This document shows positions 29,432 to 50,802 of a DNA stretch of 64,000 nucleotides, one piece after another. Below the pieces are notes generated by a model that worked only from the letters and a program-made list of their open reading frames with translations, was not told the origin of the DNA and ran no database searches. The position numbers were made by a program, and so were the translations under genes. The stretch's first letter is position 1. Each line of letters begins with the position of its first letter. This DNA is from Verrucomicrobiota bacterium (GTDB taxonomy: Bacteria > Chlamydiota > Chlamydiia > Chlamydiales > JAEYWL01): assembly GCA_023428915.1 (NCBI GenBank), contig JAEYWL010000010.1, forward strand, positions 3,357-67,356. The letters run 5' to 3'.

Positions 29432-29513
29432 ACTCTTGCTTGTCATTAAAGCGCCTTTTCCTTACGATAACCGCTCGGTTTATCTCTACTACGCAATCCA
29501 TAAAGGTGCAACA

Positions 29514-31475
29514 ATGATTAGTCCAATCGGTTCTTCTTCTTCCGCTGCGTATATTAAATATCACCCCCAGGCAAGCCAGGGCGAACGATTAGCGCATTAT
29601 ATCTATTCCAAAGCTATTACCTCATTTGAATGGACCCGTAAAGCTGTATGGCATGACCCCTTAGCCCCTATCATGAACAAGCTCCGATATGAAGCTGATA
29701 AAAGCGGCGCTGTTATTGAAGCTATTGCCTATTTGGTTGCAAATCGTAATGAACGCCTCTCTATTTTGCTTAAATGTGTGTTAAATAACGCCTCTGAAGA
29801 TATGTTGAAGAAAATGATGCAGGGGGTTATTTCTCAGGCAATTGAAACTCAAAACGGGGCTCATTACAACCTGTTATTAGAGCATCTTGAATTAGCTGGC
29901 ATGGAGAAAATTCTGCCGGAAGAAATCCGGACCACCTTGCAAAATTTGGTCAAGCATACCAGGCCGGTTGAGAGCGAGTCATTGGGTAGAAAAGAGTGGA
30001 AAAAAGTATCTACAATGTTCACTTCATTTATCCCAAATCTGGTCAATACCTTGCTTTTGGAATTTAATTACTACAGCAATGGCAGGCTGCCGGATACTCC
30101 CTGGGAAAGGAATTGCTTTTTTGAAATCCAATATAAACTCTTCATGATTCCTGTCGCGCTTTTTTTTACCATTAACACTATAGTTGCCGCTCCAGTATTT
30201 GCCCTGACTATAACGGTTTCTATAATTGCAGCAACGTTGGCAGCTATCTATATTTATGTTAAATGCTTTCAAAAATGTCCTATAGCGTTGCCGAATTGCC
30301 GCAATCTTACGCTAGAAGCTGCTCTTGGCAAATTAACTCCCACCGTTGGTAGAGAAGAAGAAATTGAAAAGCTTATTACCTATTTGGGTAATTTAGAGCA
30401 GGATTTTTCATTAAATCCTTTGCTTTATGGTTTGACAGGGGCTGGCAAAACAGAATGCATTTGCGGAGTGGCCCAGCGCATTGTGAAAGGCGAGGTGTCT
30501 GCAAGCTTAAAGAATAAACAACTCTTTATGATTAACACTGCTGCACTTGTCAGCAGTTCATTTAATGGTTTTGCTGAGAAAATGGACCAGATCATGCTCC
30601 GTCTTAAAGGATTTGAAAATGAAGTTATCATTTTCTTTGATGAAGTCCATATGGCATTTGAAAAAGGAGATGGGCTGGCAAACTTCCTAAAAACTTATGC
30701 GGTTCCTGGAGGTGTGCATTGTATAGCTGCTACAACTACTGAAGGGTATCAATCTATTAAAAATAAAGACCCGGCATTTTTAAGGCGTTTTCAAGGCTTT
30801 ATAATTAATAGCACTGGCAGGGAGTTAACTAAGCAGATTCTCACAGAGAAATTTAAGCCGGCAGCTTCAAGTGTGATTATCGATCCGGATGTTTTCGAGC
30901 TTATAATAGATGAAACTAGCGCCCGCGTTCCTGAGAAAGCGCATCCATCTCCGGACATAAACATATTAGTGCAGGCAGTTAATAAGGTAATGCTATTATT
31001 GCAGCATAAGGATCATGTACCTGCTGCTATAAAGAAAAAACAGAATGAGTTGCAAACGCTAAAGGACAAATCAGCTTTAAGTAATCCAAATAGCTGGGGA
31101 AGCTCTTCAAGCTGCCTAATTCAACTTATTGAAAAAAACGAAGCGGAACTACAGAAGTTGGAGGAGGATTGGGCAGAAAAAAGCAAGCTGATAGGAAAGG
31201 TAAAATTTCTTGTTCAGCAGCTGCTTGAGAAAAAGCAGGAAATATTAGCGTTTGCCCACGATAAGCGACAATCTTTAGCCGGAAATATAGCTTTTGCCGC
31301 AAATTTTCATTTTCTAGTTCCCTTGCTTGAAAAAGAGATTGGGAAGATAGAGCTGCTTTTAGGGGAAGAATTTAAGATAAAAATCGATAAGCAGTTAGTC
31401 TTATCTGTCATTAATGAATTGCTGCCTGCAAGGCCTGCATTGAAAAAAAGCTGGTTCTGGAACAAAGGAACTTAA
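29514..31475 (+). CDS. Membrane-anchored AAA+ protein: bilobed hydrophobic domain plus a single ClpA/ClpB D1-type ATPase module and coiled coil
   Basis: The start is moved to the ATG at 29514, downstream of the terminator. The hydrophobic region is LFMIPVALFFTINTIVAAPVFALTITVSIIAATLAAIYIYV. It is followed by GKLTPTVGREEEIEKLI, Walker A GLTGAGKT, Walker B IIFFDEVH and GGVHCIAATTTEGY..DPAFLRRFQ, which is collinear with ClpB NBD1. Confidence 0.75.
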   Translation: MISPIGSSSSAAYIKYHPQASQGERLAHYIYSKAITSFEWTRKAVWHDPLAPIMNKLRYEADKSGAVIEAIAYLVANRNERLSILLKCVLNNASEDMLKKMMQGVISQAIETQNGAHYNLLLEHLELAGMEKILPEEIRTTLQNLVKHTRPVESESLGRKEWKKVSTMFTSFIPNLVNTLLLEFNYYSNGRLPDTPWERNCFFEIQYKLFMIPVALFFTINTIVAAPVFALTITVSIIAATLAAIYIYVKCFQKCPIALPNCRNLTLEAALGKLTPTVGREEEIEKLITYLGNLEQDFSLNPLLYGLTGAGKTECICGVAQRIVKGEVSASLKNKQLFMINTAALVSSSFNGFAEKMDQIMLRLKGFENEVIIFFDEVHMAFEKGDGLANFLKTYAVPGGVHCIAATTTEGYQSIKNKDPAFLRRFQGFIINSTGRELTKQILTEKFKPAASSVIIDPDVFELIIDETSARVPEKAHPSPDINILVQAVNKVMLLLQHKDHVPAAIKKKQNELQTLKDKSALSNPNSWGSSSSCLIQLIEKNEAELQKLEEDWAEKSKLIGKVKFLVQQLLEKKQEILAFAHDKRQSLAGNIAFAANFHFLVPLLEKEIGKIELLLGEEFKIKIDKQLVLSVINELLPARPALKKSWFWNKGT

Positions 31476-31536: not shown

Positions 31537-32625
31537 ATGTTTGAGGAGCTCTACAAAACATCTTATAGCCATGGTCTTGAGGATATCTATGCCCTTGAAA
31601 CTATTGATATTAAGACTGTTCGACCATTAGCTGGCGTAAATACTGCTTTAGATGTCCAGGAGGCCCCAGCTCCCTATCATGAAGAGCAAATCCAGCAACA
31701 GCAGCCAGAATTAGATTTAGGTCCATTTTGGCGTGGTTCCGCCCCTTCATTTATACTTTTAGAGCCTATCCAAGTGTTAAATCTTCATCAGCCTGTTGAA
31801 AAGACATTAAGGGGGCATGGCATCCATTTGCTTCAAGATTTATTGCATGCGACCAAGGAATCTTTACTGGGCATCCGTGGATTAGGTCAAGGGCATATTG
31901 ATGAAGTCCTTTTTCGTTTCAAAAGCTATACAGAAAGAAGGGTGCTTCACAATGCAGTATGCGTCGATTTTTGCGCCCTCTTAAGAGCGATTGTCGGTTT
32001 TTTTGAGAAAAAGAAGATCGTGCTTTTATTACAGGAACTTGGATTGGAAGAGGAATATTCTCTGACTCCTCTGGAAGCTGCAGAGCTCAAGCGGCTGACG
32101 AAGGATAAAAGACTTGAGTGGAAAAAACAGGCGCTAGAGCATCTGCAAGTTGAAGTTAAGCAGCAGCAATTTGCTAATTGCCTAGATCATATTGTGAGGG
32201 TTTTTGTCCTCCCATGGATTCATATGCGCGGCGGGATTGCGGCGCAAACTGAAGTGGAAGAGCGCCTAATTGCCGTTAGCTTTGAACCCCTTAAAACTGA
32301 AAAGATCCTTAAGTTTTTCAGCAATATCTACTACCACGATCTTTTTCCTTTGAGCACTATTCTCTGCGAAGCTGATGAAGGAGTGTTTTGCTTAAACAGC
32401 GATACTTATGACGCCTACAGGAAAGTCAACGAATTGGCAGAAAGCTACTACTATCAAAAAGGCTTAAGCTATCCCTTGGAATACCTTTGCAACTGTATTT
32501 TACGTGAACTCGGCAAATCCTGGATAAATTATACGCAGGAATTTGTGCGAAAAGCCATTCTTTTTTCACCTCGTTTTCGCCTTGCCAAAACACCTGATGG
32601 CGTTCTCTCTGTAAGGCTCAGCTAA
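31537..32625 (+). CDS. Hypothetical protein with an RNA polymerase alpha C-terminal-domain-like (HhH) segment
   Basis: 362 aa. ILLEPIQVLNLHQPVEKTLRGHGIHLLQDLLHATKESLLGIRGLGQGHIDEV aligns by eye with the E. coli RpoA CTD segment [52 protein letters not shown]. Confidence 0.5.
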   Translation: MFEELYKTSYSHGLEDIYALETIDIKTVRPLAGVNTALDVQEAPAPYHEEQIQQQQPELDLGPFWRGSAPSFILLEPIQVLNLHQPVEKTLRGHGIHLLQDLLHATKESLLGIRGLGQGHIDEVLFRFKSYTERRVLHNAVCVDFCALLRAIVGFFEKKKIVLLLQELGLEEEYSLTPLEAAELKRLTKDKRLEWKKQALEHLQVEVKQQQFANCLDHIVRVFVLPWIHMRGGIAAQTEVEERLIAVSFEPLKTEKILKFFSNIYYHDLFPLSTILCEADEGVFCLNSDTYDAYRKVNELAESYYYQKGLSYPLEYLCNCILRELGKSWINYTQEFVRKAILFSPRFRLAKTPDGVLSVRLS

Positions 32626-37823: not shown

Positions 37824-38471
37824 ATGAAGCAGAAAGTAATCGTACTTATTGGCGCCCCAGGTTCTGGAAAAGGAACGCAAGCCAAGATGTTAAGCCAAGA
37901 ATTCCAGTTACCCCATATTTCTACCGGGGATTTGATGCGTGAAGAAGTAAAAAAAGACTCGCCGCGAGGGCGGGAAATCAAAAGATTTCAGGAAAATGGA
38001 TTATTGGCTCCAGATGAATTTATCGTCGATTTGTTGTTTAATAGAACTTCGCAAAAAGATTGTGAACGGGGTTTTTTATTAGATGGCTTTCCCAGAAAAA
38101 TTTCCCAGGGAGAAATCTTGCAGCAACGCCTCCCTAAGGAAGAAAATGAAGTTATTGCCATCTACTTGCATGTCCATGATGATGTCATCATTGATAGAGC
38201 GGCGCAGCGCAGGACATGCGCGAAGTGCGGGGCAATATATAATCTTAAATCCTCCCCCCCTGCCAATGGTTCTACATGCGATGTCTGTAATGGAGACCTT
38301 TTTCAGCGTGACGATGACCTTCCGGAAGTTGTTAAGCAAAGATTGACTGTCTATCATGAGCAGACAGAACCCCTTATAGAGTACTATAAAAAACAAGGGT
38401 GTTTACATGAAATTGACGGAGAGCAAACACCTGAGGAGGTATACCGGCAGTTGAAAAGCATTATTGGATAA
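37824..38471 (+). CDS. adk: Adenylate kinase (Cys4 zinc-lid form)
   Basis: 215 aa with P-loop GAPGSGKGTQA. The lid carries CAKCG...CDVCNG. Confidence 0.95.
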   Translation: MKQKVIVLIGAPGSGKGTQAKMLSQEFQLPHISTGDLMREEVKKDSPRGREIKRFQENGLLAPDEFIVDLLFNRTSQKDCERGFLLDGFPRKISQGEILQQRLPKEENEVIAIYLHVHDDVIIDRAAQRRTCAKCGAIYNLKSSPPANGSTCDVCNGDLFQRDDDLPEVVKQRLTVYHEQTEPLIEYYKKQGCLHEIDGEQTPEEVYRQLKSIIG

Positions 38472-39531
38472 ATGGCTTGCTTATTTTGCTGCAAGCTAAG
38501 CTTGATTGGCGTTTCTTTAATAGTGTGATTGCAAACAGAAGGCTGCTAAGCATTAAATAAGTGCTGGGTTCCGGGGCGGGCATAAAATTATTTTGGTCGG
38601 CTGCGAAGCCAGAGAATTCTCCTTGCGTGATATAGGTGCTGCCTTGCAAATTATTTACAATTAAGTTGCCAATTAGGCTGCCGGAGTTAAAGTTAACCAA
38701 AGAATTTGGCGCGAGTATGCTGTAATAGCTGCCGCTTAAAGCCAGATTTGTGGCATTTGGCAAATTAAAGAGAATATTAGATGAGGCGATGCCTCCATTC
38801 AGGGAGCTTGATAAGCTTTTAAGCAGTGTTTGTGTGGGCGTTCCGTCGAGTATATTTATGACTAAAAATGCACTGCTTGGTCCGTTTACTAAATACCCCC
38901 AAGCGTTATTAATTTGACTGAGAGTTAAATTGATAACATTTCTGCCTGAAAGCAGATTGCTAATCTGCAGCTGTCCAAAGTTGTTAGTCACAGTTGCGGT
39001 TGGAGAAAGTGCTCCCCAAAAACTGCTTGCTGATTGAAAATACTGTTTTACATATTGTAAATTTTGCGAGGGCGTATAAGGCACATTTGATTGAATTAAT
39101 CCTGTTATTGTCAAGTTAGAGCTATTATTTCCGGTTAAAGTGGCGCTTCCCACTATTTGACCGAAGCCGCCTTGTAAATTCCCCCCTGAAACTATATTTC
39201 CTTGAATGGATACGGAGCTTAAATTAACTGTATTGGCGGCTTCAATTCCTCCATATGCAGAAGAGCCCCCATTTATTGTCACTGAACCGCCTGAATAAAT
39301 TGAATAAGGTGAGTAAGGGTGGGAAGCTTGGGCGCTAAAACTAGTGAAATAACTGTTTCCTAATGAACCCGTAATCCCTTCTACGCCATTTCCATATGGA
39401 ATAGATGATGTGCCAATTTGACCTTTTGCAAAAACGTTATACTGATAGGGTTGCACAATTGCGGCAAAAACAGAGGCATTTAAGGAAAAGATTGTTATAC
39501 AAATTACTAATAATAATTTTATTATATTCAT
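38461..39531 (-). CDS. Secreted repeat protein with a choice-of-anchor-A-like N-terminal region and a PEP-CTERM-like sorting signal
   Basis: 356 aa with a signal peptide. It has YQYNVFAKGQIG...GVEG near the N-terminus and a G/S/N-rich beta-helix-like body. The C-terminus is PAPEPSTYLMLSSLLFAITLLKKRQ plus a 14-aa tail. Confidence 0.55.
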   Translation of the reverse strand: MNIIKLLLVICITIFSLNASVFAAIVQPYQYNVFAKGQIGTSSIPYGNGVEGITGSLGNSYFTSFSAQASHPYSPYSIYSGGSVTINGGSSAYGGIEAANTVNLSSVSIQGNIVSGGNLQGGFGQIVGSATLTGNNSSNLTITGLIQSNVPYTPSQNLQYVKQYFQSASSFWGALSPTATVTNNFGQLQISNLLSGRNVINLTLSQINNAWGYLVNGPSSAFLVINILDGTPTQTLLKSLSSSLNGGIASSNILFNLPNATNLALSGSYYSILAPNSLVNFNSGSLIGNLIVNNLQGSTYITQGEFSGFAADQNNFMPAPEPSTYLMLSSLLFAITLLKKRQSSLACSKISKPFIQ

Positions 39532-42032: not shown

Positions 42033-44123
42033 ATGATTGAAAATGCCTATGGATTTGTCATCGGTTGCGGTATTTTAGCTCTGCTCTTTGGCATCTATCT
42101 AATCCGTTCCGTGCTCAAATTGAGTCCCGGTAGCGAACAGATGCAAAAAATCGCCTCTGCAATTCAAGAGGGTGCAACAGCTTACCTCAATCGCCAATAC
42201 CAAATGATTACGCTAGTGGGAATTGTAATTTTTGCCCTCTTAAGCTGGAGGCTTGGCCTGTATGTGGGTGTAGGATTTCTTATCGGCTCTGTCTTGTCAG
42301 GGTTGGCTGGCTATATTGGAATGAACGTTTCTGTACGTTCAAACTCCCGTACCGCTGAGTCTGCTAAACAAGGGTTAGCGCCTGCATTATCAGTAGCGTT
42401 TAAAGCAGGAGCAGTAACTGGCTTGCTCGTAGTTAGCTTAGCTCTAATCGGAATCACCTCCTATTTAATCTTCTTAAAAAATGCTAATCTGCCTTTAAGG
42501 GTAATATTAGAGGCTTTAGTTGCGCTAGGTTTTGGTGCGTCCCTGATCTCTATTTTTGCTCGTCTCGGGGGCGGCATCTTCACAAAAGGTGCTGATGTCG
42601 GTGCAGATCTTGTTGGTAAAATTGAAGCTGGCATTCCTGAGGATGACCCACGCAACCCTGCGGTAATTGCCGATAATGTAGGCGACAACGTTGGTGATTG
42701 TGCAGGCATGGCGGCCGACTTGTTTGAGACTTATGTAGTTACAATCGTTGGTACTATGCTGCTGGCCGGTATTTATTTTACAGGCGATATGTTAAATCTC
42801 ATGATGCTTTACCCGCTATTAATCGGGGGAGTATGCATGGTTTGTACAGTGCTGGGAACTTACTTTGTGCGTTTAGGTAAAAGCAATAATATCATGGGAG
42901 CGCTCTATAAGGGCTTTTTAGCGACAGCGCTGTTATCGATTGTGGCTATTATCGGCATGACTCATTTCTTAATTGGTTTTGATAGCGCGATTCAAGAAAA
43001 GGGACTGGCTTTTACCGGTAAGAATCTTATTTACTGCGCCTTGACAGGATTAGCTGTCACTGGCTTGCTTATGTGGATTACAGAGTATTACACTTCAACT
43101 CGTTATCGCCCTGTTATGAGCATTTCCAGTTCATCTATAACTGGACATGCCACTAACATTATCCAGGGCTTAGCCGTATCAATGGAAGCTACAGCATTGC
43201 CTGTAATTGTAATTTGCTTGGGCATTCTCGTAAGCTTTTTAAATGCCGGATTGTTTGGCGTGGCTATTGCGGCAACCTCAATGCTTGCATTGGCAGGCAT
43301 GGTTGTAGCATTGGATGCTTATGGGCCTGTTACTGACAATGCTGGCGGTATAGCAGAAATGTCCGGCATGCCATCAGATATCCGTAAAACTACTGACGCT
43401 TTAGATGCCGTTGGCAATACCACTAAGGCAGTAACAAAGGGATATGCAATTGGTTCTGCAGGCCTTGCAGCGCTTGTGCTGTTTACAGCCTTCATTGAAG
43501 ACTTAACGCACTATTTCCCCAATGTAAAAGTCAGTTTTGAGCTGCAAGACCCATATGTTGTTATCGGCCTATTTATTGGCGGGCTGCTGCCGTACCTTTT
43601 TGGTTCCATGAGCATGATGGCTGTCGGCCGCGCTGCAGGTTCTGTAGTTGTGGAAGTGCGCCGTCAATTTAGGGAAATCAAAGGCATTATGGAAGGGACT
43701 GCAAAACCTGATTATAGCCGGGCTGTCGACCTCTTGACAAAAGCTGCCATTAAAGAAATGGTGCTGCCATCATTGCTTCCTGTTGCAGCCCCAATTGTGG
43801 CTTACTTTTTGGTGTATGCAGTGGTTGGACAATCTGAGGCATTTACTGTGCTTGGCTCTATGCTCTTAGGCGTGGTAGTTACTGGTTTATTTGTAGCTAT
43901 TTCCATGACTTCTGGCGGAGGCGCCTGGGACAATGCTAAAAAGCAGATTGAAGACGGGCATCATGGCGGCAAAGGTTCAGAGGCGCATAAAGCTGCCGTT
44001 ACCGGCGACACAGTCGGCGACCCTTACAAGGATACTGCAGGCCCTGCAATCAATCCGATGATTAAGATCGCCAACATTGTGGCATTGCTATTGCTAGCCT
44101 TGCTATCTTCAGGAGCTCACTAA
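42033..44123 (+). CDS. hppA: Membrane-bound proton-translocating pyrophosphatase (K+-independent type by motif)
   Basis: 696 aa with [18 protein letters not shown] and [19 protein letters not shown]. It has [10 protein letters not shown], where Lys rather than Ala marks the K+-independent class. Confidence 0.93.
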
Positions 44124-45570: not shown

Positions 45571-48500
45571 ATGCAAGTCCGAAAAAGCCTCGATGCAACG
45601 AACTGGCAGCTTATTGAAGAGCCGCCAAAGTTGCCCCCAAAGATAAAACGTCCTTGTCCTTATTCAGAGCGCAAGGGTGATTTGGTCGCCCATCGTTTTA
45701 GAGGAGCAGGCGTCTACACAGCAGAAGATGAGCTGCAAGAGCAGCATTTAGCAAAATCCATTATTCCTTTAGAGGGTGAAGGTGTTTTCTATCTTACACG
45801 TCAATTGTTTGAAAAGCACACGAGTACTGTACAAGTACTGCTTTCGCAGCTTAAACTTGATAATGGGAACTGGCAAGGTGAAAAAGAAATAGTCTATACC
45901 TGGTCGCCTATTGGCTTGTTGCTGTATCTTTTATTTGAATTTCCTAATATTTCTATTTCTGTAAAAGGGTCTATCGTCCGCAAAGCTCAAGCTTGTAATA
46001 ATAACAATTGGTATAGATGTTTTGTAGATACTCTATTTCCTAATTTGTCTTTACAGCTGCCAAGCAGTGTCTTTACACGTGAAGCCTCTCTTAGTCCATT
46101 ATGTAAACATGACGTAGATGTGAGCATTAAAGCAGAAAGTGCTGCCGAGGAAGAAGCGCTGGCAACTTTATTTGTTCACTATATTGCAATGCGATGTTTT
46201 GATGAAAGCAATATTCCCATTGCGGTCTGCACCCAGCTGCCTAAGCAAGCGCCTTTATTTGAGAACTATAAACCAATAAGGCCAAATGGGCTCGTTTCAA
46301 AAAGTCACTGTACTTTGATATCAGTAGCGGGTGTGGACCAATATGGTCTTATTCGGAATATTGATGCCGTGATTAGCAGTTTTCTCGACCCTGGATTTTT
46401 AGCAACTCACGATAATGCGGCATTGCTTCTTGAACTCCTTGATTTGGCAAAAATGATCCTCCAAGAAAATCCTGGCTTAATGGTTTTGCCAAAACGTCAA
46501 AGATATGAAAAATTAGGCGAGCTATTAAGGAAAAAATTTCCAACAAGTTTACAGCTAATAGGGGAAGCTGGTTCCCCAAAACAGGCCGTTTGTTCACAAC
46601 TGACGCGTAGATATGCTATCGAAGAGTTGGAGAAGCGCAACGGCAAAGTCTGTTTTGAAATTTACTACTTAGCTACACGCGACCGCTTATGTGATACAGT
46701 CGGAGCGGGGGTCTATCTTTTAAAGAGGATATTTTTTGAAGCCCAAAAGAATAGAAAATTTGAGTATTACCTGGGATTATGCAGAACTGTAATGGGCAAT
46801 CATCACATTCATACGAGCCCTTTAAATTTCCTATGCTATGGGTTTACCTGTTGTGCTTATCTTGAAGAGGCTAGGGTAAACTGTGAAGTTGCTGTTGATG
46901 AAGCCTTTATTAATGATATTTGGGAAAACTTTTTTTCCTTTAGGATACTTTCTAAAGATTTAAGAGCATCTTTAATTACATATTTTGAGTCTGCCACCAA
47001 AAACAGCAGCAATTTAATGCAATTAATTTACAAAGCTAGTACAGAAGGTTTTTCCTTTAGGCGTTTGCTATTTCTGGTAAAATTACGGGGCTTATTTGAA
47101 TTGCTCAAAACGCAAAATGATTTGGGGGTAATGCTTACATTCCAGTGCGGCGACAATTGCATACAAATTCCTGTATGGGACGAAAAGGGGACTTGCACTT
47201 TGATCGTCCCATTTATTAAGGCCGCCGATTTTGAAAATTGGAGAGCAGAGGAGTTTGCTGCATTTCACACAGATCAGTTAAATATTTTAACTACAGTACC
47301 TGCTCAGTCTACTCCTGACTTTTCCAATCAACCCCAATTAGTCCGCAATGCAGAGAAAATGCGGCAATTTGATTGGGAATCACTTATTGAATCGCTTGAG
47401 CAAGTCAGCTTAATATCACCATTACCTATACAGATAGTGTGCAAAAAACTTCTTATTTATATTTTTGTACATCAACAAGAAAATCTCTCGATAAAGAAAT
47501 TTCTTTGCGCATTTCCAAGCCTATTTTTTGAAACTGATTTCTTGCCAGTATTAGAAAAGTTTTCTGCTGCAAAAAGCATTGCAAATTTAATCGATTTTTG
47601 TGATGCAAATAAAAAGATTACATCGAATAAAGCTCTTATATTTAATTACTTAAATTGGCTTTCAGGGCAAGAAACTGAAGTTGTTGCTGAAGTTATTTTA
47701 ACTATTTTTAAGAGGAATCATAATATTTTTTCTGCCAATAAACTAAAAGAGTACATTTGCAATGTTTGCAAAAAAAATAGTCTATTGGCACTAAAGTTGT
47801 TCTTGTGCATGCATGAGCAAAAAAAATTTAAACCGGCAATCGAACTAGAATTAGCGGAATATATTTTTGGGCAGAGAGAACGATTAGTTGAAAATGAATT
47901 GAATGAGTTCTATTGCTTACTGCTACCATTTCTTCATAAAAAATGCCATAGAGTGGATCCACAAAAATATAGTGAGGAAAATCGCTCAGTTAGAAGATTT
48001 ATTGAAACAATTTTTTCGGCGAGTTATTGCACGGCCCCTGATGAATTTCTCTATAGTTTAGCATGCGAGGGCTTAAGGCACGATTGTTTAACCTCTTTTT
48101 CGCGAGTTGCGGAATACCTAGATAGACGGCTAGAAAGATTGATTTCTCAGCAAGCAAGGCAATTATCAAATCTAATTCGCTGTTTACAATTAATTGTTAC
48201 ATACAAATTGGATCCTTTACCGCTTTTTAGAAGCAAATGGGAAAGAGTAAAAATGCAAGTCACTACTCTATTATTGCATACTTACTCAAAAGAAGAGGCT
48301 CAAAATATTTTAAACACGATTTTTTATGAGCCTGAAAAAGTTATCGAAGTCGATGAAAAGGACTTATTAGAATTATTTACAGCGAACAATTATGAAGGAA
48401 TTTACAGAATAGTAAATTTACAGAGATTTACTATTTTAGATGACAGTAGAAAACTTTATTGGCTTGAGACCTTTGCCCAGCTTCCTGTATGTAGTGGCAG

Positions 48501-50802
48501 TAAACAAATGCATTTTTGTATATTGCGCATCGCTTTAACACATTCCAATCCTAAATTTGCTTTATGCTATAAGTTGATTAGCGATCTTATCTCTTTTTCT
48601 ACGCTGGTTTTTGATTTGCATGAGCTTTGCGAGCTACTTGAACATCATAATACCAAAGTATTGTTTCGCGATTTTCCCAATGCTATTTCTCTGCTTAAAA
48701 TTCGATTGTTAAATAAATTACCAATTCAACATGAGCATTATTCGCTGCTGCTTGCACATTTAGTGAATGTTTGTTTCAATCTCAATGATTATAGAATTGA
48801 TATACAGACCAGATTGGAAATTGCTTATTTATTATTAGCAGCCAGAAAGCAGACTGCTTCGTTAAGGCAAAGCGAGGTACTCAGAAATGCTGTACTGGCA
48901 AACCATGAAAGTATAAGAAAAATTTTAGTTCTATCACAGGAGTATGAAGCCCTTCTGCAATATCAGGCATATTTGCAAATTGCTAAAATAGGATTTCCTG
49001 AAGACTGGCACATTTCAACTTTAAACATAGCAATAGACTTTTTAAATAAAGGACATTCCACAGATAATTTTCTCGAATCCCTGCATCAATACCTGGCAAG
49101 TGACCATCCCGTTATCAAAGAAAAAAAACTTGTGCAAGTTTATCAAGTTTTTGAGTTGCTAATTAGTCAAAAAAGCTCTGAAAAACATTGTTACTATTTT
49201 GAGTTGCTAATTAGTCAAAAAAAAAGCTCTGAAAGATATAGCTACTATATTGAAGAAATTGTAAATAGAATTGAAGAGCAGAATATAAAGGAAAAAAAAC
49301 AGCTACAGTTGCCAGACGAGTTGACATCAGCTATTTTTTCTTATTATTCCTCCTTGCTATTCAATGCAGTTCATGAATTTGAGACATGCTTAGCCCCGCT
49401 TTTTGCATTGCGTATAAAAAAAGTAGCTTCTGAAAAGAAACTACTAGCTGAGTGGATAAATTTGATTGAAAGAGCTCAAAAAAATCAACAATGGCATCTA
49501 TTATTGATTATTTATCTGGAGTTAAATAATTTTAGAGAGTTGAAGTTAAGCATAAAAGAAAAGAGTTCGATCCGCAAGGCATTCACCAAAATTCTTAAAG
49601 GTAAACCATCAGCACTGGAAATTTCTACTGTCCTGAAAGCATTACCGCAATTTATGGGTTATGTAAATAATTATTGGGCGCAGGTATTTCAATTAGTGGC
49701 CAGTCACCCTAGGGAGTTTGAAAATTTACTATCCCAATTATGGTTAACTTTGGAGTCTTTGGAGTCATCTAAAGAAAAAAAAATTGTATTTCGGGAAGCT
49801 TCGCAATTTTGCTGGATTACAGCGATTAAGCATTATAGAAGATCAAAACAAAATGGAATGAGCGATCCTCACGTGGTTAATTTTTTAACTGCGATATATA
49901 ACCCTGAAAAAGCATTCCATCATTTTTTTCCTGTAAATACACAACCTGGAGTGTTAAGTGAAGCGTACCATGTGCTAATTGAAAGAGCTATAAATTTGAC
50001 TTCAGGTTCTGCATTATTTGATGAAACTCTTATTAGCAAAATTTTAGAATTAAAGGCTAAATTCGATGATTTTTTTCAGACAGTGACGGGGAAAGAGATT
50101 AATCCCGCAATTATACAAAGAATAATAAAAAAATACCCTTCTTTTCTAATTCCGCAATCAGTTCTTACAAAGAAACTCATAGGTAAAAAGGTTAAGATTT
50201 GCGCTCTTCTTTTTTCAGCTTTAAAAAATAGAAATAAGGATAAAGCTTGTGAAATTGGGCAAGAGTTATTGGAATATCAAGCACTAATTCAAAAGTCCAA
50301 TTTGGAGACTATAAAACAATCTAGCGAGAACTTGTTCATAAAGTACTTTGTAGAATATTTGCAGTTATTAAACTCGGCAAGCGATGATGTCAGAAACAGG
50401 CATATGAAAATAATTCATTTTCCAATTTGCTTTGCTTTTTATGAAACGATGACTTTAAAAGTCCGTCTTAATCTGATTAGATGTTTTTTAGAGCTTTATA
50501 AAGATTCCAGCTCCGCAACTTTTCACATGGAAAGATTAATTGTTTTAGAAGCATGCAAGCATTTAGAATTAGTGCTGCAAGAATTTATCAAAAGGAAACC
50601 CGATCCAACGGAAGTAGGATTAGTCAAAAACATCCTTATTAAAATAACTAATATTTGCGAGGAGGATTATTATTTGGCCGGCCATAAATGGGTATATTCT
50701 ATATTAGATGGAAAATATTATACTGCTAAGTGCCATTTTCTTACTTATACTGAAATTTACAAAATGCAAAACTTAGCAATATCAGCTTGCCAAATCCAAT
50801 AA
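45571..50802 (+). CDS. Giant orphan protein (1743 aa), alpha-helical, AT-rich gene
   Basis: Uninterrupted 5.2-kb ORF. The Leu/Lys/Phe/Ile-rich helical composition carries no motif I recognise. The gene is visibly more AT-rich than the flanking housekeeping genes. Confidence 0.7.
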   Translation: MQVRKSLDATNWQLIEEPPKLPPKIKRPCPYSERKGDLVAHRFRGAGVYTAEDELQEQHLAKSIIPLEGEGVFYLTRQLFEKHTSTVQVLLSQLKLDNGNWQGEKEIVYTWSPIGLLLYLLFEFPNISISVKGSIVRKAQACNNNNWYRCFVDTLFPNLSLQLPSSVFTREASLSPLCKHDVDVSIKAESAAEEEALATLFVHYIAMRCFDESNIPIAVCTQLPKQAPLFENYKPIRPNGLVSKSHCTLISVAGVDQYGLIRNIDAVISSFLDPGFLATHDNAALLLELLDLAKMILQENPGLMVLPKRQRYEKLGELLRKKFPTSLQLIGEAGSPKQAVCSQLTRRYAIEELEKRNGKVCFEIYYLATRDRLCDTVGAGVYLLKRIFFEAQKNRKFEYYLGLCRTVMGNHHIHTSPLNFLCYGFTCCAYLEEARVNCEVAVDEAFINDIWENFFSFRILSKDLRASLITYFESATKNSSNLMQLIYKASTEGFSFRRLLFLVKLRGLFELLKTQNDLGVMLTFQCGDNCIQIPVWDEKGTCTLIVPFIKAADFENWRAEEFAAFHTDQLNILTTVPAQSTPDFSNQPQLVRNAEKMRQFDWESLIESLEQVSLISPLPIQIVCKKLLIYIFVHQQENLSIKKFLCAFPSLFFETDFLPVLEKFSAAKSIANLIDFCDANKKITSNKALIFNYLNWLSGQETEVVAEVILTIFKRNHNIFSANKLKEYICNVCKKNSLLALKLFLCMHEQKKFKPAIELELAEYIFGQRERLVENELNEFYCLLLPFLHKKCHRVDPQKYSEENRSVRRFIETIFSASYCTAPDEFLYSLACEGLRHDCLTSFSRVAEYLDRRLERLISQQARQLSNLIRCLQLIVTYKLDPLPLFRSKWERVKMQVTTLLLHTYSKEEAQNILNTIFYEPEKVIEVDEKDLLELFTANNYEGIYRIVNLQRFTILDDSRKLYWLETFAQLPVCSGSKQMHFCILRIALTHSNPKFALCYKLISDLISFSTLVFDLHELCELLEHHNTKVLFRDFPNAISLLKIRLLNKLPIQHEHYSLLLAHLVNVCFNLNDYRIDIQTRLEIAYLLLAARKQTASLRQSEVLRNAVLANHESIRKILVLSQEYEALLQYQAYLQIAKIGFPEDWHISTLNIAIDFLNKGHSTDNFLESLHQYLASDHPVIKEKKLVQVYQVFELLISQKSSEKHCYYFELLISQKKSSERYSYYIEEIVNRIEEQNIKEKKQLQLPDELTSAIFSYYSSLLFNAVHEFETCLAPLFALRIKKVASEKKLLAEWINLIERAQKNQQWHLLLIIYLELNNFRELKLSIKEKSSIRKAFTKILKGKPSALEISTVLKALPQFMGYVNNYWAQVFQLVASHPREFENLLSQLWLTLESLESSKEKKIVFREASQFCWITAIKHYRRSKQNGMSDPHVVNFLTAIYNPEKAFHHFFPVNTQPGVLSEAYHVLIERAINLTSGSALFDETLISKILELKAKFDDFFQTVTGKEINPAIIQRIIKKYPSFLIPQSVLTKKLIGKKVKICALLFSALKNRNKDKACEIGQELLEYQALIQKSNLETIKQSSENLFIKYFVEYLQLLNSASDDVRNRHMKIIHFPICFAFYETMTLKVRLNLIRCFLELYKDSSSATFHMERLIVLEACKHLELVLQEFIKRKPDPTEVGLVKNILIKITNICEEDYYLAGHKWVYSILDGKYYTAKCHFLTYTEIYKMQNLAISACQIQ
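49150..49248 (+). repeat. In-frame tandem duplication inside the giant ORF (48-nt and 51-nt units differing at a poly-A tract)
   Basis: TTTGAGTTGCTAATTAGTCAAAAAAGCTCTGAAA... occurs twice. It encodes FELLISQKSSEKHCYY / FELLISQKKSSERYSYY, with A6 in one unit and A9 in the other. Confidence 0.85.

Follow-up and report, generated by a model that had tools for sequence, protein, structure and literature searches.

A large family of predicted membrane-tethered, single-ring ClpB-type AAA+ proteins in environmental chlamydiae, possibly acting at the inclusion membrane

Chlamydiae interact with their hosts chiefly through inclusion-membrane proteins (Incs). These proteins are defined by localisation and most of them carry a hydrophobic hairpin near the N-terminus. 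To our knowledge, the Incs characterised so far are scaffolds or adaptors. Among the Hsp100 unfoldases, ClpB structures place the N-terminal end of the first ATPase domain (D1) on the substrate-entry face of the ring, and Y503 in the ClpB middle (M) domain is a regulatory tyrosine that contacts DnaK. Here we analyse a chlamydial gene, called the AAA gene below, whose predicted product carries a ClpB-like D1 and M-domain behind an Inc-type hydrophobic hairpin. It was studied within a window of 64,000 nt (the whole stretch of DNA that was analysed) from contig JAEYWL010000010.1 of assembly GCA_023428915.1. Residue numbers refer to the 653-amino-acid (aa) protein.

29514..31475, + strand: AAA gene, 653 aa plus stop codon (open reading frame listing; the identical protein is P0001 in public assemblies)

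From the N-terminus to the C-terminus the chain consists of a Ser-rich disordered stretch, a helical domain, a hydrophobic segment, a 13-residue linker and a ClpB D1 with its M-domain. We propose, with a probability of about 0.5, that this protein is a membrane-tethered and catalytically competent AAA+ unfoldase made of one ClpB D1 ring and the ClpB middle domain, and that it is secreted and acts as an Inc-like hexameric extractase with its entry face on the vacuole membrane.

In order to delimit the family, a word-index search was run and returned three close relatives only (87%, 47% and 46% identity). An exhaustive hidden Markov model search was seeded with these relatives and the window protein (four sequences), and the 150 top-ranked clusters, formed at 50% identity, were inspected through their representatives. 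Among them, at least 123 clusters share the architecture. They are 540–790 residues long, have a single Walker A motif and a strongly hydrophobic segment about 50 residues upstream of it, and are collinear with the window protein from residue ~70 to residue ~645. Because rank 150 is still a family member (E 8.5e-39), the true family is larger than 123 clusters. The family conservation counts given below were all taken from the 123-member alignment (A3).

Other searches added little to this set. A scan of the genome collection with the 4-member alignment gave no confirmed relative, and a word-index protein search with the 123-member alignment yielded nothing beyond homologues of ClpB and D1 proteins of the stand-alone type. 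No match was obtained in a word-index search with a 54-sequence alignment of the pre-transmembrane, hairpin and juxtamembrane segment. In the metagenome scan, in which one pattern was the Walker B motif, only L089–L092 were family members and the rest were mostly ClpB or ClpC. The source databases label members “hypothetical protein” or, mis-called, “ClpB”. In full-text literature searches, neither a ClpB-D1 protein with a membrane anchor nor an AAA+ Inc was found described, and the Inc catalogue supplements of PMC3048545 hold no ATPase, AAA or Clp entries. The original prediction, made from the DNA letters alone, had not recognised the architecture as a described one; this agrees with the absence of a published description in our searches, but the protein is not singular. 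It belongs to a large and divergent family, apparently undescribed and seen so far only in environmental chlamydiae.

The C-terminal part of the protein is collinear with ClpB. In NCBIfam, positions 161–498 of the ClpB model match with an E-value of 8.5e-36 and the ClpV, ClpG, ClpK and ClpA models match over their D1, which places the domain in the ClpA/B/C D1 group; the score against the ClpB equivalog TIGR03346 is 123.6 bits, for a cutoff of 1232. ClpB chains of the PDB align to residues 264–622, corresponding to E. coli ClpB 167–526 (E ~5e-30). Structural results come from an AlphaFold2 (AF2) run on the 123-sequence alignment, which gave a mean predicted local distance difference test score (pLDDT) of 89.7 and a predicted template modelling score (pTM) of 0.84; a run on a 4-sequence alignment gave a pLDDT of 53 and was unusable. 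When this model was compared with the PDB by Foldseek, the top 50 matches were all ClpB, Hsp104, ClpC, ClpA or HSP101, including ClpB 6rn3_F (E 2e-16) and 4hse, which holds the ClpB first nucleotide-binding domain (NBD1) and M-domain (target-normalised TM-score 0.63). As judged from sequence, the D1/M-domain matches are far beyond chance. Pfam recognised only a generic AAA domain (residues 303–429), and AAA_lid_9 was not detected in Pfam scans of the window and of 70 family members. The parts of this module are as follows.

30303..30809, + strand: D1 large subdomain, residues 264–432, aligned to ClpB 167–335
30429..30452, + strand: Walker A GLTGAGKT, residues 306–313; K312 is kept in 123/123 family members
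30552..30572, + strand: pore-loop-1 equivalent SSSFNGF, residues 347–353; F350 aligns with ClpB Y251
30627..30644, + strand: Walker B IIFFDE, residues 372–377 (IIFFDEVH, 372–379); E377 is found in 117/123 and D376 in 110/123 members
30732..30788, + strand: sensor-1 T407/T408 and arginine fingers R424/R425, which align to ClpB T315 and R331/R332
30810..31013, + strand: first part of the D1 small (lid) subdomain, residues 433–500 (AF2 helices 436–450, 460–471 and 479–497; ClpB lid alignment)
31014..31388, + strand: ClpB-type middle (M) coiled-coil domain, residues 501–625 (AF2 helices 504–522, 530–582, of 53 residues, and 592–616)
31389..31472, + strand: closing lid helix (626–636) and disordered tail, residues 626–653 (AF2)

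The protein also contains GKLTPTVGREEEIEKLI at residues 272–288, GGVHCIAATTTEGY at residues 399–412 and DPAFLRRFQ at residues 419–427. The AF2 helices and the ClpB alignment, which extends up to ClpB residue 526, show the M-domain inserted in the lid, the arrangement of ClpB itself. In its third helix, [YF]600-L-L-P603 aligns with ClpB Y503 and the proline that follows; 88 of the 123 members have an aromatic residue at this position and 85 have the proline three residues further. A second nucleotide-binding domain is absent: only one Walker A motif occurs, and the chain stops 30 residues past the M-domain. Hence the first description of the protein, which had quoted these motifs together with Walker A and Walker B, its collinearity with ClpB NBD1, a coiled coil at the M-domain position and the lack of a second NBD, is borne out by the protein sequence and by the NCBIfam, PDB and Foldseek matches. 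One relative of 992 aa, P0168, has a hydrophobic segment at 135–182 and two Walker A motifs (336 and 613). Judging from its sequence, P0168 might have two rings and a membrane anchor, and so represent an intermediate step in evolution from ClpB to the half-ClpB family.

The residues for ATP binding and hydrolysis are intact and the protein is predicted to be catalytically competent. Besides the Walker residues, T408 is kept in 114/123 and R425 in 119/123 members. F350 is invariant in the 4-member clade formed by the window protein and its three close relatives, which also keeps F353. These data bear on a different explanation, namely that the protein is a non-threading membrane ATPase, in either membrane, which would serve as a nucleotide-dependent scaffold or switch; its D1/M fold would then recruit Hsp70 or oligomerise in a regulated way instead of unfolding substrates. 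Indeed, no part of the D1 core is less conserved than the pore-loop-1 region, in which several members have no aromatic residue, and D1 of ClpB is known as the weaker motor with a regulatory role. However, the clade of the window protein has both phenylalanines, F350 and F353, at this position, and 93–97% of members retain the Walker B glutamate, the sensor-1 residue and the arginine finger, which points to hydrolysis and not just binding. We regard the scaffold explanation as improbable. Since some pore loops lack an aromatic, threading may nevertheless not be universal in the family.

The ATPase module is preceded by the only strongly hydrophobic part of the protein and by a short linker.

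30138..30260, + strand: two-lobed hydrophobic hairpin, residues 209–249 (L209–V249), with lobe 1 at ~209–224, a turn at ~225–229 and lobe 2 at ~230–249
30261..30302, + strand: juxtamembrane linker, residues 250–263, signature Y248-x-K-W-x-x-P-C-P ... N264-L-T

The segment consists of 41 uncharged residues bounded by K208 and K250. Its 19-residue Kyte-Doolittle average peaks at 2.2, and no other segment of the protein exceeds 1.6. In the family column profiles two apolar lobes (209–224 and 230–249) are seen around a turn rich in Pro, Gly, Ser, Thr and Asn (221–229). The distance from P213 to Y248 is 35–37 residues in 113/123 members, 72/123 have no charge there, and the flanks are basic in the family (position 208 is charged in 66%, 250 in 82% and 253 in 78%). 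AF2 models helices 196–223 and 227–252 with pLDDT >90 and a three-residue break between them. From this break and the high pTM we infer that the two helices probably pack antiparallel as a hairpin. The segment had been described as a stretch of about 45 residues of the two-lobed type; the type agrees with the family profiles and with AF2, but the length is 41 residues. Being internal, it is not a signal peptide.

An Inc hydrophobic domain has been defined as 40–60 residues with two transmembrane helices of 15–32 residues and a loop of 3–22 (PMC3048545). The hairpin fits this definition at its lower length limit, with lobes of ~16 and ~20 residues and a turn of ~5. Because identity is low in the lobes while hydrophobicity and length are kept, we consider that they face lipid and do not form a soluble core. 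A soluble protein with a buried hydrophobic core, or a decayed clpB fragment, is thus a very improbable explanation: 41 charge-free residues with low identity, conserved hydrophobicity and conserved length are a lipid-exposed signature, and a pseudogene is excluded by the at least 123 divergent full-length homologues with intact catalytic motifs. Since the pTM of the whole chain is high, the N-domain and the ATPase are expected to pack together, on the same side of the membrane.

At Y248, P256 and N264, each found in 116/123 members, the juxtamembrane region is conserved to the same degree as the ATP site. Over the 123-member alignment the juxtamembrane signature reads Y-x-[KR]-W-x-x-P-C-P-x7-N-L-T. 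The linker of the window protein contains three cysteines (C251, C255 and C262), of which C255, within the P-C-P motif, is present in 71/123 members and C262 in about half. That they might serve acylation, metal binding or redox chemistry at the membrane interface is pure speculation.

The region upstream of the hairpin has two parts.

29514..29573, + strand: disordered Ser-rich N-terminus, candidate type III secretion signal, residues 1–20 (pLDDT <50 for residues 1–17)
29574..30098, + strand: all-alpha N-terminal domain, residues 21–195 (AF2 helices 22–185; pLDDT ~95, mostly >90, for residues 50–150)

In the first 25 residues of 122 divergent members, Ser accounts for 15% of positions (7% in ClpB homologues), Ser+Thr for 22% (13%), Ser/Thr/Asn/Gln/Pro for 42% (27%) and acidic residues for 6% (12%). 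Over the whole protein the family contains 7% Ser and 12% Ser+Thr. A Ser/Thr-rich and charge-poor composition is what type III signal predictors rely on. By composition, the N-termini of the family are thus type III secretion-like, which is suggestive but not proof.

The N-domain belongs to no Pfam family in 70 members and has no sequence match in the PDB, and a tblastn search of plasmids with the N-terminal half gave no match. We rejected the idea that it is a diverged Clp_N: Pfam Clp_N was not found in 70 members, and hhalign of the family N-region against ClpB N-domains gave a probability of 0.2%. A match of residues 31–108 to a Wolbachia NCBIfam family associated with the type IV secretion system (E 0.004, 17 bits, cutoff 150) was treated as noise. 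Just before the membrane, residues 161–208 carry the conserved motif FIPNL(I/V)NT.L..F.....G..P...WE, which over the 123-member alignment reads F-I-P-N-L-I-[ND]-T-x-L-x-A-F-x5-G-x2-P-x3-W-E. Within the 4-member clade, identity is 15–21% over residues 1–160, 65–73% over 161–208, 69–88% in the linker and 63–66% in the D1 large subdomain. Such a fast divergence of the N-domain is expected for a host-facing specificity module.

These features can be assembled into a mechanism. The hairpin would put the N-domain and the ATPase on one side of the membrane. Because the linker has only 13 residues and the N-terminal end of D1 lies on the entry face, the entry face of a hexamer would be held against the membrane, with its pore above a bundle of 12 transmembrane helices. 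The ring would then pull polypeptides out of, or through, the membrane toward the compartment that contains ATP, with no attached protease, and the M-domain would act as an Hsp70-responsive throttle, as in ClpB. Type III secretion would export the protein, and in this clade Slc1 may be its chaperone. In the inclusion membrane it would then take an Inc-like position, its two domains exposed to the host cytosol. There, the fast-evolving N-domain would pick the substrates of the ring, either host proteins on the vacuole or chlamydial proteins that cross it. Four features favour the inclusion membrane, namely N-termini that resemble secretion signals throughout the family, a hairpin of the Inc type, an occurrence seen so far in chlamydiae only and an N-domain that is hypervariable; the neighbouring slc1 gene adds weakly to them. 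A fuller picture, which as a whole seems to us doubtful, is an autonomous AAA+ unfoldase that the bacterium secretes into the membrane of its own vacuole: a D1 ring on a 12-helix bundle, with the N-domain as selector and the M-domain engaging host Hsp70, would use host ATP to strip host defence or trafficking proteins from the membrane or to pull lumenal chlamydial proteins across it.

Alternatively, the same machine could belong to the inner membrane of the bacterium. Its N-domain and ATPase would then face the chlamydial cytoplasm, and it would work as a protease-less dislocase or quality-control factor. For example, hairpin proteins that were inserted wrongly, among them Incs not yet secreted, might be extracted by it and handed to DnaK or to type III secretion chaperones. 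This location is the main alternative, somewhat less probable in our view than the inclusion membrane. The ATPase needs ATP, and the K/R-flanked hairpin obeys the positive-inside rule for a protein with both ends in the cytoplasm. The ClpB-like M-domain signature is kept and could couple to bacterial DnaK. Bacterial membrane-anchored AAA+ proteins such as FtsH face the cytoplasm, other members of the family sit in housekeeping neighbourhoods, and a large folded N-domain before the hairpin is atypical for Incs. However, Ser/Thr-rich, charge-poor and disordered N-termini are kept in 122 divergent members with no obvious need for them in the inner membrane, and the N-domain diverges very fast. 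Moreover, the family is unseen outside chlamydiae among the assignable contexts, although generic quality control would be useful elsewhere.

The surroundings of the AAA gene comprise the following elements.

28841..29344, + strand: slc1-like class I type III secretion chaperone gene, 167 aa (Pfam CesT, E 7.6e-32)
29389..29435, + strand: intrinsic-terminator-like hairpin and T-run 3' of slc1 (16-pair stem, 5-nt loop)
29440..29468, + strand: promoter-like hexamers (consensus scan 9/12, not above shuffle expectation)
29502..29508, + strand: ribosome-binding site AAAGGTG (direct reading)
31537..32625, + strand: 362-aa gene, co-syntenic with the AAA gene, with a weak RpoA-CTD-like helix-hairpin-helix domain

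The chaperone is presumably Slc1, as we take the divergent glgX-chaperone pair to be that of C. trachomatis (CT042 glgX, CT043 slc1). The gene order glgX (on the − strand), slc1, AAA gene and 362-aa gene is common to 4/4 clade loci (the window and three relatives), and the window Slc1 is 92–100% identical in the three related loci. In chlamydial genomes 322 Slc1 relatives were found, of which the best 80 are 74–94% identical (Parachlamydiaceae, Waddliaceae and other chlamydiae). Slc1 is exceptionally conserved, being 92–95% identical between genomes in which GlgX is only 55% identical. Across the Slc1 loci the upstream order queA-glgX-slc1 is conserved but the downstream side is not, with ssb in 23 loci and other genes elsewhere, so that slc1 marks a synteny breakpoint (loci L002–L084).

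Several observations weigh against the secreted extractase. The 208 residues with a folded domain that precede the hairpin are long for an Inc, and the formation of a hexamer by a lone D1 is assumed. The pore loop is gappy and variable in the family and has no aromatic in several members (P0077, P0078, P0088, P0091 and P0093). The divergence of the whole protein (47% identity) is only slightly above that of the neighbouring GlgX (55%). Adjacency to slc1 is limited to four close relatives, with a terminator between slc1 and the AAA gene; no family member occurs within 6 kb at any of 80 other slc1 loci, and slc1 is missing from 11 other family loci, whose neighbours are unrelated. On these two counts, Slc1 was rejected as a family-wide partner. 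Thus, the position directly behind slc1 and its terminator, on which the original prediction had leaned, is real at this locus but loses weight as a functional argument.

Reading of the sequence places the start of the AAA gene at ATG 29514, with AAAGGTG 6 nt upstream. A mechanical open reading frame extended to a TTG at 29436 (26 codons longer) was rejected: it overlaps the tail of the slc1 terminator, and all called homologues begin at the ATG. Gene callers that prefer the longest frame would misplace the start at TTG 29436 and hide the Ser-rich N-terminus. Because of the terminator-like hairpin and T-run after slc1, the AAA gene is probably a transcription unit of its own, separate from slc1. 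A tandem paralogue or second copy of the AAA gene in the window was looked for and rejected.

The 362-aa gene lies 3' of the AAA gene in 4/4 clade loci (43–44% identity), but it occurs neither at 80 other slc1 loci nor at 11 other loci of the family. Residues 75–124 of its product give a borderline match to Pfam RNA_pol_A_CTD (E 3.6e-5, 23.9 bits, cutoff 23.8). This protein may be a partner of the AAA protein or may simply have been transferred with its gene.

Other family members lie in ordinary housekeeping neighbourhoods, with genes that include Lon, H+-PPase, ssb, dnaN and RF3. Six contexts could be assigned; all of them are chlamydial and none was seen to be non-chlamydial, while most of the 123 clusters come without taxonomy. 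The evidence at five loci is as follows, with MAG standing for metagenome-assembled genome.

L086: H+-PPase 73% identical to the window copy
L087: matches in chlamydial MAGs, at 50–60% identity for dnaN/recF and 72% for TrxB
L091: neighbour 60% identical to a Parachlamydiales MAG
L169: SSB 68% identical to a chlamydial MAG
L170: assembly accession prefix as for “Parachlamydiales bacterium SW_13”

Two distant members, P0060 (L086, 4583–8869) and P0161 (L170, 10001–14648), have an H+-pyrophosphatase gene directly 3', 73–74% identical to that of the window, which lies at 42033–44123, 10 kb downstream of the AAA gene. The slot next to the H+-PPase gene may be an older genomic position of the AAA family. 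Another member, P0207 (L169, 10001–12576), is located immediately upstream of ssb, the slot held by slc1 in many Parachlamydiaceae, with a SET-domain protein nearby. Elsewhere in the window, a 1743-aa open reading frame (45571–50802, + strand) has no Pfam match and could encode a large lineage-specific protein, and a 356-aa protein (38461–39531, − strand) carries a “putative ice-binding-like adhesive” domain (pAdhesive_15, E 3e-22).

If the protein is secreted, the ways in which intracellular bacteria can act on host membranes would come to include active extraction or translocation of proteins, by an unfoldase of the vacuole membrane. Inc proteins would thereby gain their first ATP-driven motor, and the variant that works from the lumen to the host would parallel the Plasmodium PTEX idea in a bacterium. 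If it resides in the inner membrane, it would represent a new protease-free way for bacteria to pull proteins from a membrane. Either way, the family offers a compact natural single-ring ClpB D1 with its M-domain for mechanistic work, a new N-terminal domain, and a sharply conserved juxtamembrane motif (Y-x-K-W-x-x-P-C-P ... N-L-T) without known function.

Comparison with known systems places the AAA protein between several of them. It is homologous to ClpB/Hsp104 and collinear with them over ~360 residues, from the D1 large subdomain through the lid with its inserted M coiled coil. The Walker A, Walker B, sensor-1 and Arg-finger residues are identical, the window protein and its clade have an aromatic at the pore-loop position, and the aromatic-Pro motif is found at the Y503 position. 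In contrast with these proteins, it has neither D2 ring nor Clp_N, and a new N-domain and a transmembrane hairpin replace the flexible linker between the N-domain and D1 of ClpB. It resembles Incs by a two-lobed hydrophobic domain with a short polar loop, by being restricted to one phylum as far as seen, by fast evolution and by a type III secretion-like N-terminal composition. Unlike in most Incs, the hairpin is found 208 residues in, behind a folded domain, and the AAA protein is a predicted Inc by hydrophobic-domain criteria alone.

Msp1/ATAD1 and FtsH provide a working analogy, which follows from the 13-residue linker: a short tether, a ring entry face on the membrane and membrane proteins that are pulled out. 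These proteins differ in that they belong to the classic AAA clade and not to Hsp100 D1, have one or two ordinary transmembrane helices and no M-domain, and, for FtsH, carry a protease. HSP101 of the Plasmodium PTEX is likewise an Hsp100 unfoldase at the membrane of a pathogen vacuole, and its chain 6e10_1 was the structural match at rank 36. However, HSP101 is a soluble two-ring ClpB homologue that is docked on the lumenal side to a separate pore protein, whereas the AAA protein has a single ring and its own hairpin.

Finally, the stand-alone single-D1 proteins of Mycoplasmatota and Bacilli (316 aa; P0208–P0230 and P0056) share a ClpB-D1-like module. They are very common in assemblies of these groups, with one cluster on 218 contigs, and form a separate and apparently uncharacterised half-Clp family. 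They differ from the AAA protein in having no membrane segment, N-domain or M-domain and, by their source-database names, in belonging to other phyla.

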